Shown: positions 39,678 to 46,703, numbered from the stretch's first letter. The stretch is 64,000 bases of DNA from Candidatus Eiseniibacteriota bacterium (GCA_041946735.1 JBHGAY010000001.1:192001-256000); one strand, 5' to 3'. Numbers and translations: made by a program. The notes: generated by a model from the sequence alone, not told the origin.

Positions 39678-40244
39678 TTACGTCTCCCGGCTCCGCCGAA
39701 ACGCCCACGACAGGAGGATGGGGTCCCGAGCGGCCTCGGTGCACAGCATCTCCGGCAAGGGCCGGATTCCGATGCGTCCGAGGTCGAGACGGTCCGCGTC
39801 CCAGCAGGTCTGGATCGTCACGTCCGCTTGCAGCTGGCCGTGGCTATGGTCCCGGCAGGCGAAGAGGAGGAGGTCGAGATCCTCCTTCTCGAGCTGGAAG
39901 GCGTTGCCGGCGAGCGAGAGCGCGAAAGCCGCGGCCCGCAGGCCGTGGTCGCGGTCCTCCGTATCCGAGACCCGGCGGGCGTCGTGGATCAGCGCGAACA
40001 GCTCCACGACCGGCTGCTTCGCCCCGGTCAGCGGCGCGAGCCGGATCCCGTTCTCCAGCACCCGCTTCCAATGCGGCCTCCCGTGCACCCCTTCCAGATC
40101 GAGCAGGAACTGGCGTTCGATCGTGGAGAGAAGCAGCGGGTAGCGAATGGTCCCGGGCTGCAGACCGCTGGCCGGGGGGGGCCCGGCCGGCTCTTGACGT
40201 CCGGGCCCGTCGTGAGGCACTCCCGTTTCTCCCGTTTCTTCCAT
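39678..40244 (-). CDS. HD-domain metal-dependent phosphohydrolase
   Basis: HG..HW.RV, IHD, HG.RAA and CWDADRLDL. TGATG coupling to the upstream gene. Confidence 0.85.
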   Translation of the reverse strand: MEETGETGVPHDGPGRQEPAGPPPASGLQPGTIRYPLLLSTIERQFLLDLEGVHGRPHWKRVLENGIRLAPLTGAKQPVVELFALIHDARRVSDTEDRDHGLRAAAFALSLAGNAFQLEKEDLDLLLFACRDHSHGQLQADVTIQTCWDADRLDLGRIGIRPLPEMLCTEAARDPILLSWAFRRSRET

Positions 40245-41680
40245 CACCGGGAACGTATCAGACGGACGGTCGCTCCACCCTTCCCTTCGGTCGTCACGAG
40301 ATACACTCCGGCCGGGACTTCGCGGCCCTGCTCGTCGCGGCCATCCCAGACGACCGTTCCGTCCGGCGCTTCGAGCATCCGGACCCGCCGTCCGGACAGG
40401 TCGACGATCGCAGCCCTCCGTCCCGTCGACAGCCGGATCTCCGTGGCCCGTTGGAACGGATTCGGCACGGCGGCGATCGTAGGGACCGCTGTCGCCGTGA
40501 CGCCCGGCTCCGGGACGGCATCCGGACGGAGCCATGCGATCCGCTTCTTGTAGATCACGCCCTGGAAGCTCGGAAGGAAGCCGACGCACCAGACGTCCGC
40601 CGAGTCCGATACGAGGGGCTCCCAGTCGATCGCCGACATCTCGGCCCCCGTATCCTGATCGAGGTTCCAGCTGTTGCCGCCGTCGAGCGACTCCCAGATT
40701 CCGCCTCCGGCGTTGTTGAAGCGCGTCCCGCCGGCCGCGAAGCCGTGGAAGAGATCGAAGACCTGGACGACGCGGATCGGATAGTTCGTCTGCAGCACCC
40801 TGCCGCTCCAGGTCGCTCCGCCGTCGGAGGAGCGGTGGACCCACCCGCTGACCGGCGCGGAGATCTGTCCCCCGCCCGTCCATCCCAGAATCCCGTCGGC
40901 GAACGAAACGCCGCCGTCGAAGACGTTGTCGACCGAGTGCCGGGAAGACCAGGTAAGGCCGCCGTCGGTGGAGTTGCAGAGCTGGATCCCGGTCACCCAG
41001 GCGCGGAGGGCCGCATCGAACGTGAAGTTGCCTGCGAACCAGCCGCCCGTCGGGTCCGCCTGGATCTTCGTCCAGTCGGCCGCTGTTCGCCCTCCGTTCG
41101 TCGTGACGTAGACATATCCCTGATAGCCGTAAGCGATCCCGTGCATGGAGTCGGCGAAACGAATGTTCAAGAGCCAGTTGGCCGGGTCGAGGACGACGTC
41201 CGGCGACCAGGTCGCGCCACCGTCGTCGGTCCAGCGGAGGATTCCGGCCCCGCTCTGGTTCTGGAATCCCGCGACGACCGCCGTTTGGGCGGAGAAGGCA
41301 TGCACGCCGTACCAGTAGTACGGGAAGCCGACGTTCATCGCCGTCGTCCAGCTCGCGCCCCCGTTGGTCGTGTGGTACACCGCGCCGAGTTCGGCCGACG
41401 CGAAGCCGTTCAAGGGATCGGCAAAGGAAACTCCGGTCAAGACGTTGGAGACGGTTTGCTGCAGGACCCATCCGGTCCGGTCGCCGGTCGGAGCTTCGAC
41501 CGGCTGTTGCACGAAGTCCGGACCTCCCGAGACGGGGATCCTCTGCAGAAGAGCCTCCCCGGCACGAAGGTCGCGGCGCTCGGGGCTGATCGCATCAGCC
41601 TGCGATAGGAGCGGCGAGAGCAGGAGCGACAACAGAATAGAGGAGGAAAGAGCGAGGAGACAGAAGCGTGGAGATCGCAT
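40244..41680 (-). CDS. Secreted YCF48/BNR-repeat beta-propeller with FlgD-Ig-like tail
   Basis: Seven (T/S)x(D/N)GG..W-type repeats; tail PNPF..DLSGRRVR..WDGRDEQG..PAGVY. Confidence 0.88.
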   Translation of the reverse strand: MRSPRFCLLALSSSILLSLLLSPLLSQADAISPERRDLRAGEALLQRIPVSGGPDFVQQPVEAPTGDRTGWVLQQTVSNVLTGVSFADPLNGFASAELGAVYHTTNGGASWTTAMNVGFPYYWYGVHAFSAQTAVVAGFQNQSGAGILRWTDDGGATWSPDVVLDPANWLLNIRFADSMHGIAYGYQGYVYVTTNGGRTAADWTKIQADPTGGWFAGNFTFDAALRAWVTGIQLCNSTDGGLTWSSRHSVDNVFDGGVSFADGILGWTGGGQISAPVSGWVHRSSDGGATWSGRVLQTNYPIRVVQVFDLFHGFAAGGTRFNNAGGGIWESLDGGNSWNLDQDTGAEMSAIDWEPLVSDSADVWCVGFLPSFQGVIYKKRIAWLRPDAVPEPGVTATAVPTIAAVPNPFQRATEIRLSTGRRAAIVDLSGRRVRMLEAPDGTVVWDGRDEQGREVPAGVYLVTTEGKGGATVRLIRSR

Positions 41681-41851
41681 GCTGCACCTCCGGGATTGTC
41701 CGTATTCGGTTGCGGGGCTCGCGCTGGCGGGCCTCCTGAAGCACGCGCAGAAGGATACGGCAGCGGCATGGACCTGTCCATCCACGCTGCGGGCCGCGCT
41801 ACCGCCGGCGACGCAGGCGCGGAGAACCGGGCCAGGGTGGACCGGTCTCCG

Positions 41852-42046
41852 TCAGAAGAAAAGAGACGGCGAGCTCGGGCAGGCGCGAAGCATGAAAAGC
41901 GTTGCGGCGGCGGCCGCGCCAAGGACGAGGAGCAGCAGGCCCACGAGCGCGAACGCAGAGATCCGCGGCCGGGAGACGCGAGACAGGACGAACGGCACCC
42001 GGTCGCGAACCCCGGCCGGGGACTCGCGGCGGAGCTCAGCGCCCAT
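41852..42046 (-). CDS. Possible 64-aa single-TM protein
   Basis: GGAG upstream of the ATG, overlaps the previous stop, TM segment AFALVGLLLLVLGAAAAATLFML. Confidence 0.45.
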   Translation of the reverse strand: MGAELRRESPAGVRDRVPFVLSRVSRPRISAFALVGLLLLVLGAAAAATLFMLRACPSSPSLFF

Positions 42047-42269
42047 CGCGGTCTCCGGCCGGCGCTCCGTCCGTCCCGGTCGCCGCCTGCCGCCGATCCG
42101 GAACGTAACGACGGAAGAAGACGATCCCGTTCAGCTCCTGCTTCGGGAAGTTGCGGTTCGGCCGCCGGCGGTCGCGCAACTTGTACGCCGCGTACGAGCC
42201 AACGGCGAGGACGATCGAAGCGATCGTCGCAACCAGGATCGCCATCGAGAAAAAGCCCATCGCGTTCAT
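42036..42269 (-). CDS. 77-aa single-TM protein (BcsF-like candidate)
   Basis: SD GGAGG, N-terminal TM, basic juxtamembrane stretch and IVFFRRYVP. Confidence 0.7.
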   Translation of the reverse strand: MNAMGFFSMAILVATIASIVLAVGSYAAYKLRDRRRPNRNFPKQELNGIVFFRRYVPDRRQAATGTDGAPAGDRDGR

Positions 42270-42327
42270 CGTCGTCCTCCGGGGCGACGCTCCCGCGCGC
42301 CGCCGGTGCGGGTCCCCCAAGCGAGCT

Positions 42328-43635
42328 TCAGATCCGCCCCCGGCGCTCGAGCTTCCCCCATCCCATCTCGACAGAAAGGGTCTCCTCGACGAGCGCGCCG
42401 ACGCGGCACACGTCGAGGCAGAGCGTGAAGAAGAGTCGGTAGGGGATCGCGTAGGGAACGAGGCGCAGATCCTCCTCCTCGGCGACGACGCAGAAGAGGC
42501 CGGCGACGAGATCGAGGACCGTGAGCTGCAACCACCAGAGCAGCAGCAGGCCACCCGACTGGTAGGCGCTCGCCATGTAGAGCAGCCAGACCTGAGCCAT
42601 GAGGTTGACGAGAGGCCACAGGAGGCCCTCGAAGAGCAGGTGGAGAATCGAAAGCGAAAGCAGCGCGTTGTCGCATCGGATCGCGGGGCGCACCCGCTTC
42701 TTCACCGCCTGCAGCAGGCCGCGCGACCAGCGGTAGCGCTGCTGGAACAGGTCCCGCATTCCCTCCGGGGCTTCCGTGAAAGCGATCGCGTTCGGCTCGT
42801 AGCGCACCCGCCAGCCCCGCTCGAGGATCTTGAGCGTCAGGTCGGCGTCCTCCGCATACGTATCCTCGGAGTATCCGCCCGCCTCGCGCAGCACCCGCCG
42901 CCGGAACATTCCGAAAGGCCCGGGAATGATCGCCACCGAGCGGAAGAACGCTTGCGCGCGCCGCGACATGTTCAGCCCCTCGACGTACTCGAGCGCCTGC
43001 AGCCGCGTCAGGAGGTTCCGCCGGTTCGCAACCTTCACGTTTCCCGCGACGGCGCCGACCTTCGGGTCGCCGAAATGACGCACCGCGGCTCTCAGGCTTC
43101 CTGGCTCGATCCTGGAGTCCCCATCGACGCAGAGGATCAGGTCCTCGTGCGCGGCGGAGATGCCGAGATTCAATGCGCTCGCCTTCCCGCCGTTCGCTTT
43201 GTGCAGCACCCGCACGCGGGTGCCGGAATAGCGTCCCTCCATCGCGCTCGCGCGCAGGAACGTGTCGTCGGTCGAGCCGTCGTCGATCACGAGAATCTCG
43301 AAGCTCGGATAGTCCAGCTCGAGGAGCGATCGGATCGATGCCTGGATCGTCACCGACTCGTTGAATGCGGGCACGAGGATGCTCACCGGCGGCAGCGCCT
43401 GGCACTCCGGCTCCGCCCCCCCCTCGATCCCGTCGAGGTAGGCGAACCACATGAGGATGAAGTGCCGGAGGATCAACACGCAGAGGAAACCGAAGAAGAA
43501 CGCGCCCGCGCCGCGGGTCCAAGCGGGAAGCGCCGGCAGCGGCTGGCGAAAGAGGATGCCGGCCAGAGCGAAACCGAGCGCGACGAAGAAGCCGGCGAGG
43601 AGGACGAGGAGCAGGAAGTAGCGCACTCTCCTCAC
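42328..43635 (-). CDS. Processive GT2 polysaccharide synthase (PgaC/IcaA-like)
   Basis: PAFNE, DDGSTD, NGGKASALN, VDGD, EDADLT and QQRYRW. Two N-terminal and several C-terminal TMs; no PilZ domain. Confidence 0.9.
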   Translation of the reverse strand: MRRVRYFLLLVLLAGFFVALGFALAGILFRQPLPALPAWTRGAGAFFFGFLCVLILRHFILMWFAYLDGIEGGAEPECQALPPVSILVPAFNESVTIQASIRSLLELDYPSFEILVIDDGSTDDTFLRASAMEGRYSGTRVRVLHKANGGKASALNLGISAAHEDLILCVDGDSRIEPGSLRAAVRHFGDPKVGAVAGNVKVANRRNLLTRLQALEYVEGLNMSRRAQAFFRSVAIIPGPFGMFRRRVLREAGGYSEDTYAEDADLTLKILERGWRVRYEPNAIAFTEAPEGMRDLFQQRYRWSRGLLQAVKKRVRPAIRCDNALLSLSILHLLFEGLLWPLVNLMAQVWLLYMASAYQSGGLLLLWWLQLTVLDLVAGLFCVVAEEEDLRLVPYAIPYRLFFTLCLDVCRVGALVEETLSVEMGWGKLERRGRI

Positions 43636-43638
43636 CGG

Positions 43639-45042
43639 CTAATGTCTCCACTCCAGCGCGAGCCGCACGCTCCGCGATTCGTAGCGGGAGATCCGGCGGG
43701 TCGCCGAGATCTCGCCGGTCGCCACCGCGTCGAGCGAAGAGGCGATCGGAGCGCGGAAAGCGAGCTTGCCACCGCCTGCCTCGCCGGACCCCGTCCTGTT
43801 TCCGACGGCGCCGAACCATCCCGACGCGTCGAGGGAGAAGAAGGCCGGGAGCGGAGGCGAGAGATGGATCCAGGCCGCGGCGGTCCATTCGTCCCTGGGC
43901 GCGTAGTAGAGAGAGGAGCCGCGCGAGTAGCCGGTCCACTGGGCGGCGAGAGCGGCGCGCAGAGGCCCCGCAAGCTTCGCGTCGAGCGCAACGTCGCTCG
44001 AGCGGAAGGCGTTTTCGTCGTCCCAGCTTCCCGCGCGCAGGCGCATGTAGAGGCCGGCGCGGGGCGAGAAGGAGAGGTAGCCGGAGAGGCTGCCGTCGAC
44101 CCCTCGCAGGCCCGCCTCCTCCGCCGCAACGCTCTTCAGCTCGTAGCCGCGATCCGCGAAGGCGGCGGCGGCCTGGAGCGAGGCTCGCGCGAGCGGGCGA
44201 GATCGGAAGACAGCGCGAAGGCGCGGGCAGGCGCCGTCCGCCGAGCCGGCGCCCGGAATCGAGACGCCCGCCTCGAACGCGATGGAAGACCGGGGTCCTG
44301 TCGCGATCTCGGTCCCGGCCTGCAGCAACTGCCTCTCCGTCTCGCTCGCGCTCTCTCCCGCGCTCTCTCCCGGCCCAGGCGCGCCGGCTCCATCACGCGT
44401 GAGGCGTTCGCTTCCCGCCGTGATCGTCCACGCGGTGGCCGGCCCCGTGTCGAGCCGCCCGTGGATCGCGAAGGCGCGAGCGCTCACTTCTCCGGAGTCC
44501 TCGAAGAAGTCGACGCTCGCGCGCACGGCCGGATCGCATTCGCGGGCGAGCGACCGTTCGAGAGAGCGCAGATCCTCGTCCTCCGGGTCGAGGCGGCGCA
44601 GGCGACGGACCGACTCGAGCGCCTCGCCCGACCGTCCCGCCCAGCGCAACGCGTTCGTTCGCGCGCGCAGCACCGCCCGGTCCGCGGGCGACTGCCGGAG
44701 CAGATCCTCGTAGAGGGGGATCGCGGCGTCGGGATCCCCTGACCATGCGAGGGCGTTGGCGAGATCGAGGCGCGTGGCGCGGTCTTCTGGATGGCGCACG
44801 AGCCGATTGCGGAACACGGGGATCGCGATCTCCTCGTTGCCCGCCCAGTGTTCGGCGCGCGCGGCGGCCAGGAGGCTGTCCTCAGGGGAACCGACGGCGT
44901 GCGACGGCTGTGCTCCGCGCGCCGGAGAAGCAAGAAGAAGCGAGAGAGCGGCGAGCGCCGCAGCTACGGTGGCATGACGGGTGCGGCCGCGCGCCGGGCG
45001 GCCCGTGACGCGAGCCGGCCGCGCCACGGCGCCCTGCCTCAT
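43639..45042 (-). CDS. TPR + putative outer-membrane beta-barrel protein (PgaA-like architecture)
   Basis: Signal peptide, TPRs (LANALAWSG..A..LY, NALRWAG), amphipathic beta-strand C-terminal half ending VRLALEWRH. ATGA overlap with the upstream gene. Confidence 0.72.
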   Translation of the reverse strand: MRQGAVARPARVTGRPARGRTRHATVAAALAALSLLLASPARGAQPSHAVGSPEDSLLAAARAEHWAGNEEIAIPVFRNRLVRHPEDRATRLDLANALAWSGDPDAAIPLYEDLLRQSPADRAVLRARTNALRWAGRSGEALESVRRLRRLDPEDEDLRSLERSLARECDPAVRASVDFFEDSGEVSARAFAIHGRLDTGPATAWTITAGSERLTRDGAGAPGPGESAGESASETERQLLQAGTEIATGPRSSIAFEAGVSIPGAGSADGACPRLRAVFRSRPLARASLQAAAAFADRGYELKSVAAEEAGLRGVDGSLSGYLSFSPRAGLYMRLRAGSWDDENAFRSSDVALDAKLAGPLRAALAAQWTGYSRGSSLYYAPRDEWTAAAWIHLSPPLPAFFSLDASGWFGAVGNRTGSGEAGGGKLAFRAPIASSLDAVATGEISATRRISRYESRSVRLALEWRH

Positions 45043-46703
45043 GGCGCGACCGCCAGGCGGCGTGTCCCATACGCGGCGAAGCCCGGATACCGGAAGAGGT
45101 CGAATTCCGGCTCCCGGGCGCGCCGCATCACCTCGTCGGGATCGGCGAACGGCACCCCATCGATCGGCTCGACGACGTCGTAGGAGCAGCGGATGTGCGG
45201 CGGCTCCCCGTCCTGCGGCCGCGGCCATTCACGACGCAGCCGGGCGATGAAGCCGAGCGTCCCCTCGATGGTCTCCGCATGCAGCACGACGAGCGCCTCG
45301 CCTGGACAAGGGAAGGTCAGCAGGTCGTCCGGGCGGCTCAAGCACTCGAGATCCGCCGGGATCGAGGCTGGCGTGTCGGACGACGGATCCCACAGGAGCC
45401 GGACCACGCCGAGGCTCCGGGCGAAGGCCCGGGCGTCTTCGCACGCGCTCTGCAAGTGCGTGCGGAACTCTTCCGGCGGCAGCGCTCGGACGCGGGCGAG
45501 CGACAGGAGATCTTCGACGTCGGCCGCCGGCGGAGCGGCCGGCGCGACGAAGAGGCGGCTTGCGTTGCGCACCTTCTCGATCACTTCGCGCAGCTCGAAG
45601 GGCTTCGAGATGAAGTCGTTGCCCCCGAGTGACAGTCCTCGGACGCGTTCGTTGCGATCCTGAATCCCGGAGACGAAGAGGATCGGCTGGTGGAAGCCCG
45701 AGCCGCGGAGGGCGCGGCAGACGTCGAAGCCGCTGAGCTTCGGAAGCTGGACGTCCAGCAGGATCACGTCCGGGGCTTCGCGGACCGTGCGGGTCAGCGC
45801 CTCCACTCCGTCCTCGGCCATCAGCAGGTCGAACTCGCTGCGCAACGCCTTGCGCAGGAGCGAGCGGATGAAGGGGTCGTCGTCGGCGAGCAGCACGCGC
45901 TTGCGCGGGTGCGGCACGGCCGGCGGCCCGGCCGGCCCGCCGCTGGAACGCGGGGCGGAGACTTGCGACGCGCTGGCGCTCGCGCGAGATGTCGAAGCGT
46001 CCCTCTCGCCATCCGCGGTGACGCGCGTCTCGACCAGCCCGGCTCCCGGCACGATCTGGAACGGGATCTTTCGCATCCGGTCCGACGGCTGGCGGAGCTT
46101 GTGGATGAAGAGTCGCTTCGAGGACTCGAGACTCTCGACCTCGTCCTGCAGCTCGAAGATGCCCTGGCAGATGTCGGAGAAGACCCGGTACAGGGACGGA
46201 TGGCCTTGCGTCGCGCCGCGATCGTTGAGGAACAGGGGGGTCCATCCCCATTCGGCCAGCGTCTCCGTGAGATAGCGGAGGTCGTAGCGGAGCCGTCCCT
46301 CCTCGGTGCTGCCTCCGAAGAGGGGATGGATCGGATCGAAGACGATCCGGCGATACGCCGCTTCGGCGCGAAGCTCGGCGAGAGGTTCGAGGAAGCGCTT
46401 CCACCCGTAACGCATCAGCCGGCTTGTCACGTCCTGGTCGTACTCGAGCAGGCAGAGGTCGCCCCGCTCGACGGCCGGGTAGGGATCGAGCGCCAGGCTG
46501 GCTGCCTGCGCGAGGAGGTCGGCCGGGCGCTCGATCGTCATCAGGATCGCCGGCTCCTTCGAGCCTCCTCCGAGCGCGTACTGCAGGCCGAGCAAGGTCT
46601 TGCCGGTCCCCGCCTCGCCGAAGACCAGGTATGGCTTGCCCCGGAAGAACCCTCCGATGTGATCGTCCAGCAGACCGATTCCCGTGCGAAACGTCCCGTC
46701 CAT
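45039..46703 (-). CDS. KaiC/RAD55-like ATPase + receiver + degenerate GGDEF fusion protein
   Basis: TGI..LD..IGG, GEAGTGKT, IVFD and KLR; REC motifs ADDD, LLDV and SKPF; RPDD-LLTFP-CPGEA-LVVL. Confidence 0.85.
   Translation of the reverse strand: MDGTFRTGIGLLDDHIGGFFRGKPYLVFGEAGTGKTLLGLQYALGGGSKEPAILMTIERPADLLAQAASLALDPYPAVERGDLCLLEYDQDVTSRLMRYGWKRFLEPLAELRAEAAYRRIVFDPIHPLFGGSTEEGRLRYDLRYLTETLAEWGWTPLFLNDRGATQGHPSLYRVFSDICQGIFELQDEVESLESSKRLFIHKLRQPSDRMRKIPFQIVPGAGLVETRVTADGERDASTSRASASASQVSAPRSSGGPAGPPAVPHPRKRVLLADDDPFIRSLLRKALRSEFDLLMAEDGVEALTRTVREAPDVILLDVQLPKLSGFDVCRALRGSGFHQPILFVSGIQDRNERVRGLSLGGNDFISKPFELREVIEKVRNASRLFVAPAAPPAADVEDLLSLARVRALPPEEFRTHLQSACEDARAFARSLGVVRLLWDPSSDTPASIPADLECLSRPDDLLTFPCPGEALVVLHAETIEGTLGFIARLRREWPRPQDGEPPHIRCSYDVVEPIDGVPFADPDEVMRRAREPEFDLFRYPGFAAYGTRRLAVAP

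Follow-up and report, generated by a model that had tools for sequence, protein, structure and literature searches.

A small single-pass membrane protein encoded after a PgaC-like synthase, and its possible role as an adaptor for a regulator with a BcsE-like domain plan

Results and discussion

A small gene in a pga-like cluster

The DNA analysed here (the window) is a stretch of 64,000 nucleotides from a Candidatus Eiseniibacteriota bacterium. Its minus strand carries, tightly packed and in this order, genes for a regulator, a TPR protein and a PgaC-like GT2, followed by the small ORF that is the subject of this report and by a second ORF of 64 aa (Table 1). The TPR protein likely starts at M63 of the listed ORF, at an ATG at 45042 that overlaps the TGA of the regulator gene; the GT2 gene begins 3 nt after the TPR stop, and 58 nt lie between the GT2 stop and the start of the small ORF. 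On TIGR03937 (PgaC_IcaA) the GT2 reaches 213.6 bits, short of the 422 that the cut-off requires, and its alignment to E. coli PgaC, which spans 255 aa of the catalytic domain and takes in the QxxRW region, shows 32% identity. A scan for terminators 3' of the small gene found none.

Over 42 aa, the 64-aa ORF aligns at 40% identity with the N-terminal TM-anchor region (residues 14-55) of the deacetylase-domain protein of a related locus (L001), and it is probably a remnant of the corresponding part of a deacetylase gene. The window cluster seems to have lost its PgaB-like deacetylase and may be decaying; the one PF01522-type match in the rest of the genome, on contig 3, is weak (E 1e-8).

Table 1. 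Features of the cluster and of the small gene, in nucleotides counted from the start of the window.
Feature	Position	Strand	Basis
Small single-pass membrane protein P0001, 77 aa	42036..42269 (incl. stop codon)	-	ORF translation and family conservation
Shine-Dalgarno GGAGGA, 5 nt 5' of the ATG at 42269	42275..42280	-	Direct sequence reading
Predicted TM helix, residues 5-25	42195..42257	-	Sequence; most conserved part of the family
Basic juxtamembrane stretch SYAAYKLRDRRRP, residues 25-37	42159..42197	-	Conservation of Y26, R32, R35
Cytosolic tail motif IVFFRRYVP, residues 49-57 (family consensus PxFFxRYxP)	42099..42125	-	Family alignments
TGTDG, residues 64-68, within the acidic/glycine-rich C-terminal end	42066..42080	-	Alignments
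64-aa ORF overlapping the end of the small gene by 11 nt	41852..42046	-	Alignment to the L001 deacetylase-domain protein
PgaC-like processive GT2, 435 aa	42328..43635	-	Pfam GT2 families
TPR-containing putative export protein, PgaA position	43639..45042	-	TPR Pfam matches, weak PgaA N-terminal match
Regulator, 554 aa: KaiC-like ATPase, REC and degenerate GGDEF	45039..46703	-	Pfam, alignment, structure models

An unnamed and widespread family

Translation of the small ORF agrees exactly with the product read in the initial annotation, with its N-terminal TM helix, the stretch GSYAAYKLRDRRR (residues 24-36 of P0001) and the tail IVFFRRYVP. By the positive-inside rule the protein is predicted to have its N-terminus outside and its C-terminus inside. 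A 172-aa ORF listed at the same place (42036-42554) was rejected: it begins too far 5', at a GTG inside the GT2 gene.

A word-indexed search with P0001 returned 9 homologues of 62-84 aa with 14 invariant positions in common, and a profile of these homologues, run against 1.84 billion representatives, gave 528 matches at E<=1e-3, of which 91 reach E<=1e-10. The 150 best-scoring of the 528 include 120 proteins of 50-100 aa; nearly all of the 150 align from residue 1, and no fusion to a GT2 was found among them; one long GT2 homologue was inspected (P0242), and its extension is N-terminal. The consensus of a 130-sequence alignment reads MDLxxxLSTVILVxTIVTIVLAVxSYxAYKLRExRRP, then a linker of 6-12 aa, then PxFFxRYxP, with Y26, R32 and R35 each at least 90% conserved. 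A search for variants without the tail motif showed that a tail of the FF/YF/VF-x-R type is kept by the small proteins of all 26 genome loci described below.

No family in Pfam or NCBIfam fits the small protein, and an NCBIfam scan of P0001 at E<=10 gave a single chance match, to TcuB. Its neighbours in the ESM Atlas are unnamed clusters, mostly from Gemmatimonadota. The family is unnamed and widespread.

Spurious ORFs are abundant in high-GC DNA, and a chance ORF with no gene behind it has to be considered here. The profile matches, the position kept in 104 loci of high-GC and low-GC genomes alike (see below), and the Shine-Dalgarno site nevertheless place the ORF far beyond chance. The spurious reading, to which we give virtually no credence, is refuted by this conservation, and the small ORF is a real gene.

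The small gene adjoins a GT2 gene in distant lineages

A scan of species-representative genomes yielded 27 loci, in MAGs labelled Eisenbacteria, Gemmatimonadota, Myxococcota/'Deltaproteobacteria', 'Spirochaetales' and others. At 26 of these the small ORF directly follows a homologue of the GT2 (50-69% identity to that of the window), while the remaining locus, from Nocardiopsis, was discarded as a chance pattern match with no GT2. The gap from GT2 stop to small-ORF start, a length that depends on manual choices of start, is -4 to +16 nt in 25 of the 26 loci and 54 nt in L001. Of the 18 genome loci where 3 kb or more of sequence precedes the GT2, 17 have a homologue of the regulator on the 5' side, as searches with the regulator profile showed; the exception is L010, whose GT2 also looks truncated, and the other 8 loci are too short. 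The TPR protein stands between regulator and GT2, and in many loci a deacetylase-domain protein (PF01522, about 600 aa) comes after the small ORF. These gene contents give the cluster order regulator, TPR export protein, PgaC-like GT2, small TM protein, deacetylase, which amounts to a pga-like set. At four Gemmatimonadaceae loci (L016, L018, L019 and L021) the regulator ORF is a KaiC-like domain alone, of 230-340 aa, and no receiver or GGDEF-like part was detectable on the same strand.

The alignment of the GT2 family also showed that the close homologues all end in MxWGKLERxGR[IL], just 5' of the start of the small gene; this C-terminus is a candidate contact or coupling element.

Some of the longer profile matches keep the TM and juxtamembrane core and have a different end, KFLKYTSEGYV...KWR. 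A metagenome scan with these sequences identified 80 loci of 28-49% GC, in 78 of which the small ORF follows a GT2 at gaps of -6 to +65 nt, the other 2 beginning at the small ORF and having no upstream sequence. An ORF is conserved at the homologous position: wherever there is upstream sequence the small gene directly follows the GT2 gene, without exception in the 26 genome loci and the 78 metagenome loci (104 of 104 together).

A protein of about 410 aa that matches the regulator profile is present in 37 of the 39 low-GC loci whose sequence extends 4.3 kb or more upstream of the GT2 (L081 has a partial match at the contig edge, and L074 has none). It matches the KaiC-like and C-terminal parts of the regulator and not the receiver. 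The KaiC-like domain is joined to REC and a degenerate GGDEF (GGDEF*) in the window's clade and to GGDEF* without REC in the low-GC group, and it is the sole regulator part present in all clades. One low-GC locus, L058, has the order GH9, KaiC-like regulator, TPR protein, GT2, small protein, deacetylase-domain protein; the GH9 endoglucanase-like gene that precedes the regulator there (L058:561-2201) would be odd for an N-acetylhexosamine polymer.

The components have diverged to different degrees when the window is compared with the low-GC group: identity is 47% for the GT2 and 46% for residues 1-35 of the small protein, but only 25% for the KaiC-like N-terminal domain of the regulator, and the tail of the small protein does not align. 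Simple presence/absence logic could not separate the hypotheses considered below, since all 26 genome loci keep the tail and the low-GC group changes the tail and keeps the regulator. As a KaiC-like regulator is retained in the low-GC group alongside a different tail, the interface must have been remodelled there if the tail does dock on the KaiC domain.

The regulator follows the domain plan of BcsE

The regulator matches the KaiC (E 7e-30) and receiver (E 1e-23) families of Pfam, and at E<=0.1 Pfam gave only KaiC, REC and AAA families, with no BcsE/GIL match. In the PDB it matches KaiC and response regulators by sequence. GEAGTGKT forms the Walker A motif, and the receiver, as read from the alignment, keeps the acidic pair, the central Asp and the Lys position. 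An AF2 model has a mean pLDDT of 86 and a disordered linker at 232-263. Because a Foldseek search with the full-length model returned KaiC matches only, the C-terminal domain was modelled alone. The model of the last 167 residues (pLDDT 88, pTM 0.81) has solely GGDEF domains as its top Foldseek-PDB matches (WspR, PleD, DgcB and others; E ~1e-5, TM 0.50-0.57). An R-x-[ED]-D motif lies five residues before the GGDEF place, and in the window RPDD is kept while the GGDEF position reads CPGEA. This RxxD spacing is what we take to be the I-site spacing of PleD. At least 5 GGDEF-domain matches above the Pfam cut-off occur in the genome, which makes c-di-GMP signalling plausible.

BcsE has been described as having a RecA-like N-terminal fold that overlays on KaiC, with a degenerate Walker A, and a degenerate REC-GGDEF tandem (PMC7439463). 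On the strength of the Pfam matches, the models and the alignment, the regulator of the window has the same three-domain plan, a KaiC-like NTPase, a REC domain and a GGDEF fold with RxxD, and the initial annotation's description of this neighbour as BcsE-like holds at the level of that plan. The likeness does not extend to sequence: hhalign of the regulator alignment against E. coli BcsE gave 0.4%. Moreover, whereas the domains of BcsE are described as degenerate (PMC7439463), the window regulator has an intact Walker A and a canonical-looking REC.

The TGTDG element, found in the tails of small proteins of the Eisenbacteria clade, recurs at the extreme C-terminus of regulators of that clade and of paralogous regulators (e.g. 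L119:6806-8479); the window's own regulator ends without it. TGTDG may be a shared docking or modification site.

Regulator-coupled modules without a GT2

The small protein is present in 5 of 151 genomes of the window's phylum, the window's own included, and in each the regulator is 2.65-2.85 kb away on the same contig; an unpublished genome among the 151 (G015) gave no small-protein match. Eleven further genomes have a paralogous regulator (E 1e-88 to 1e-101), full-length except at L122, where it is truncated, and no small-protein match. These 11 are close kin rather than independent cases, 10 being from family f4 and the other being G140.

In the four stretches scanned with the GT2 profile, no PgaC-like GT2 was found within about 8 kb of the paralogous regulator. 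A whole-genome search with the same profile, in four such genomes that are 92-95% complete, gave no match at E<=1e-20 in two and only partial-length GT2 matches in the other two (4e-23 and 2e-25, against 4e-213 for the positive control).

Nine of the 11 paralogous regulators have next to them, 3' and in the same orientation, an ORF for 63-101 aa with one N-terminal TM, a basic stretch and an invariant LFFxxxxP, and in 6 of these 9 the ATG overlaps the regulator stop. Four of the nine ORFs were picked by the motif pattern and five by a hydrophobicity filter only, the motif being present in these as well. They belong to genomes G076, G057, G126, G072, G110, G111, G138, G104 and G092 (loci within L119-L129). 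The two loci without such an ORF are L122, with the truncated regulator, and L127, which has a TM-less remnant only. In a single hhalign comparison, the window family matched the regulator-coupled ORFs with a probability of 86.9% (E 4e-6), and the match spans the basic stretch and the FF motif and not the TM.

Three of these stretches were annotated (L119, L121 and L123). An ECF sigma gene lies 3' of the small ORF in L119 and L121, the two where the next gene was scanned, and a divergent Maf gene lies 5' of the regulator in L119 and L123. The GT2-less module may be a membrane-tethered sensor with a transcriptional output.

L122 (G140:C1:1501000-1519000) comes from a genome of the window's own family. 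Its regulator is cut to profile positions 237-554 and has an in-frame TGA; the next gene 3' encodes a homologue of the BNR-like protein of 513 aa that lies at 40244-41785 in the window, with no TPR protein, GT2 or small gene between the two. The cluster appears to have been deleted there.

A proposed two-part adaptor

Because the TM half of the small protein tracks the synthase and the tail tracks the regulator, we read it as a two-part adaptor, an inner-membrane subunit of a PNAG-type synthase-dependent exopolysaccharide machine, and we judge the chances that this is correct to be about even. The N-terminal TM and basic juxtamembrane stretch would associate with the PgaC-like GT2 translated just before, as gene coupling and conservation suggest. 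The tail PxFFxRYxP would dock on the KaiC-like N-terminal domain of the cluster regulator, to which the analogy with BcsF and BcsE points, as does the way the motif travels with the regulator. Docking would then hold the regulator, presumably a sensor of c-di-GMP and phosphorylation, at the synthase. What the analysis shows is the gene, its family, the synteny, the domain folds of the regulator and the sharing of the motif; we infer both contacts, the binding of c-di-GMP by the regulator and an N-acetylhexosamine polymer.

The gene order of the window can be read more simply. Its small gene follows the GT2 and not the regulator, and gene order alone favours a plain subunit of the synthase, that is, a functional analogue of PgaD or IcaD needed for the folding, stability or activity of the GT2, with a tail that acts on the GT2 cytosolic domain or on nucleotide and not on the regulator. 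The constant place immediately behind the GT2 gene, where the stop of the one and the start of the other often overlap, and the strong conservation of the TM fit such a role, and there is precedent in pgaD and icaD, whose products are described as non-homologous yet required (PMC7112194). Against it, the tail motif is also found on regulator-coupled small TM proteins in genomes without this GT2, and the tail diverges along with the regulator while the GT2 stays conserved. The protein also has one TM helix where PgaD has two, and it has no similarity to PgaD. We regard a purely synthase-accessory role as rather unlikely. The PgaD/IcaD-like partner that the initial annotation had named as its alternative is in this respect borne out in its gene position, which is that of pgaD in every locus, and in its conserved TM, but not in topology or sequence.

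Conversely, the protein could serve to tether the regulator and nothing else, as a strict analogue of BcsF whose TM is an anchor or dimerisation element making no specific contact with the GT2. BcsF itself sets the example (bioRxiv 10.1101/2024.06.05.597511), and regulator-coupled small TM proteins do exist without any GT2. However, the TM and juxtamembrane sequence is near-fixed across phyla where there is a GT2 and is not conserved in the GT2-less modules, and the gene adjoins the GT2 and not the regulator in all of the 104 loci with upstream sequence, so that we think a role as tether only improbable. The membrane anchor for the regulator that the initial annotation proposed retains comparative support, from the BcsE plan of the neighbour and from FFxxxxP on regulator-coupled proteins, and has lost its sequence link to BcsF.

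The adaptor reading was also put to complex prediction. With the GT2, residues 1-235 of the regulator and the small protein predicted jointly as three chains, three runs scored 0.54, 0.53 and 0.43. A control with the GT2 replaced scored 0.69, which means that the three-chain score is not specific to the GT2, and the two controls in which the partner, the small protein, was replaced each scored 0.00; these scores count neither for nor against binding.

If the adaptor model holds, the connection between sensor and synthase would be a simple peptide-domain interaction, and the system would offer a handle on the ATPase activity that BcsE has lost. BcsE and BcsF are commonly seen as additions peculiar to cellulose systems of the enterobacterial type, and the control of PNAG synthesis in Proteobacteria is ascribed to PgaC-PgaD. 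The locus suggests a third arrangement, in which a PgaC-type synthase has a one-helix subunit whose tail recruits a BcsE-like sensor with its ATPase motif intact, and this arrangement would be widespread, in Eisenbacteria, Gemmatimonadota, Myxococcota and a low-GC lineage. A search of full-text literature, with subscription-only papers outside its scope, found no description of the family, no KaiC- or BcsE-like regulator and no BcsF-like peptide in a PNAG-type cluster.

More speculatively, and less likely than not in our view, FFxxxxP could be a portable docking peptide for KaiC-like NTPases, with the TM half as an exchangeable address that chooses the membrane machine to which the regulator is brought; the pair in the window would then be a relative or analogue of BcsE-BcsF that has remained catalytically competent, and through it a PNAG-type synthase would be coupled to ATP turnover, to phosphorylation of the receiver and to the sensing of c-di-GMP. 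If that is true, activation by a tethered sensor, in the manner of BcsE and BcsF, would be general to synthase-dependent polysaccharide secretion across several phyla, and it would be usable for other outputs, such as the ECF-sigma-linked modules.

Comparison with BcsF, PgaD and IcaD

The resemblance to BcsF that the initial annotation had seen in the small protein did not survive comparison at the level of sequence families. PF11120 gave no match to P0001 at E<=0.1, and a six-frame scan of the genome at E<=10 gave matches at two other places only and none at the small ORF; the family is absent from those listed for 10 members and from the 25 most-matched families (E<=1) for 130 members. As a control, E. 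coli BcsF scores 116 bits on PF11120. An alignment of BcsF from E. coli K-12 and six plasmid records, which at 7 sequences, all from Enterobacterales, is shallow, has the invariant tail residues F40, R44, Y45, K47 and G50 and the motif F..(P/A)RY.K..G. Against these 7 sequences, hhalign of the 130-sequence family gave 22.9% over 33 columns, confined to the N-terminus/TM and the juxtamembrane part; against E. coli BcsF singly it gave 0.2%, and BLASTP of P0001 against E. coli BcsF aligned 3 residues only. With no PF11120 match, a profile-profile match limited to the TM and a different spacing of the motif, we rejected the small protein as a member of the BcsF sequence family.

The likeness to BcsF is rather one of design. 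Each is some 60-80 aa long and has one TM, at the N-terminus; a basic juxtamembrane stretch comes next, and the cytosolic tail is short and aromatic. BcsE, the partner of BcsF, has the same plan of RecA/KaiC-like NTPase, REC and GGDEF with RxxD as the window regulator. Just as E. coli bcsF overlaps bcsE, the small genes of the paralogous modules overlap the regulator stop. BcsF is described as a peptide that spans the membrane once and, with its C-terminal tail, adds to the beta-sheet of the N-terminal, NTPase-like domain of BcsE (bioRxiv 10.1101/2024.06.05.597511). The differences are nonetheless considerable. The F..(P/A)RY.K..G of BcsF stands against FFxxxxP here, with no similarity beyond the TM. 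BcsF is encoded after BcsE, whereas the window gene and those of the 104 related loci are encoded after the GT2, and only those of the GT2-less modules follow the regulator. BcsF belongs to the BcsA cellulose synthase system, whereas the window has a PgaC-like synthase and no BcsA, and related loci have deacetylase genes. BcsF is a protein of Proteobacteria; the hosts of the small protein are Eisenbacteria, Gemmatimonadota, Myxococcota and the low-GC group.

The same comparison bears on ancestry, as the small protein might be truly homologous to BcsF but far diverged from it, the BcsE/BcsF pair and the present one being of common descent. This is compatible with the adaptor model, and the collinear layout of N-terminal TM, G/S-Y, basic stretch and aromatic tail, the weak but collinear hhalign match (22.9%) and the shared three-domain plan of the regulators would agree with it. 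It is at odds with PF11120, which is missing at E<=1 from the 25 most-matched families of 130 members and at E<=10 from this place in the genome, and with an alignment that covers only the TM and leaves the motif differently spaced; we consider common descent very improbable.

A further parallel is the split BcsE of Pseudomonas putida, PP_2629/PP_2630, which lies before bcsF and has the NTPase-like domain as an ORF of its own near a small TM protein (PMC7439463). It recalls the ORFs with a KaiC domain only at L016, L018, L019 and L021, a likeness drawn from the description and not from sequence, and it belongs to a cellulose system, unlike the PgaC-like locus of the window.

Membership in the PgaD family fared no better. 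One of 10 members matches PF13994, at E=0.095, and the family is not among the top 25 for 130 members; hhalign against E. coli PgaD gave 0.6%. With so little support from PF13994 and hhalign, and with 77 aa and one TM, the small protein was rejected as a member of the PgaD sequence family too. What it has in common with PgaD is to be a small inner-membrane protein whose gene lies immediately 3' of that of a PgaC-type synthase, and both the pga cluster and the small-protein cluster contain a TPR export protein and a deacetylase. PgaD, at 137 aa, is the longer, and the window protein has a single hydrophobic segment. In E. coli, c-di-GMP is reported to be sensed by PgaC-PgaD themselves (PMC7112194), whereas the window cluster has a separate regulator bearing a GGDEF* domain. 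The same source describes the products of pgaD and icaD as non-homologous membrane proteins, required for their GTs, and mentions pga-like operons of environmental bacteria in which pgaD is not detectable (PMC7112194).

IcaD, the partner of IcaA in making staphylococcal PIA/PNAG, is likewise a small membrane protein encoded after a GT2. An NCBIfam scan at E<=10 gave no similarity to IcaD. Its topology differs from that of the single-TM protein described here, and we know of no link between the staphylococcal IcaA/IcaD system and c-di-GMP. IcaD is reported to be required for full GT activity (PMC7112194).

What the small protein has in common with BcsF is design, what it has in common with PgaD is gene position, and membership in neither family is supported. 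By analogy, the best reading is that it functions like BcsF in the place of PgaD.
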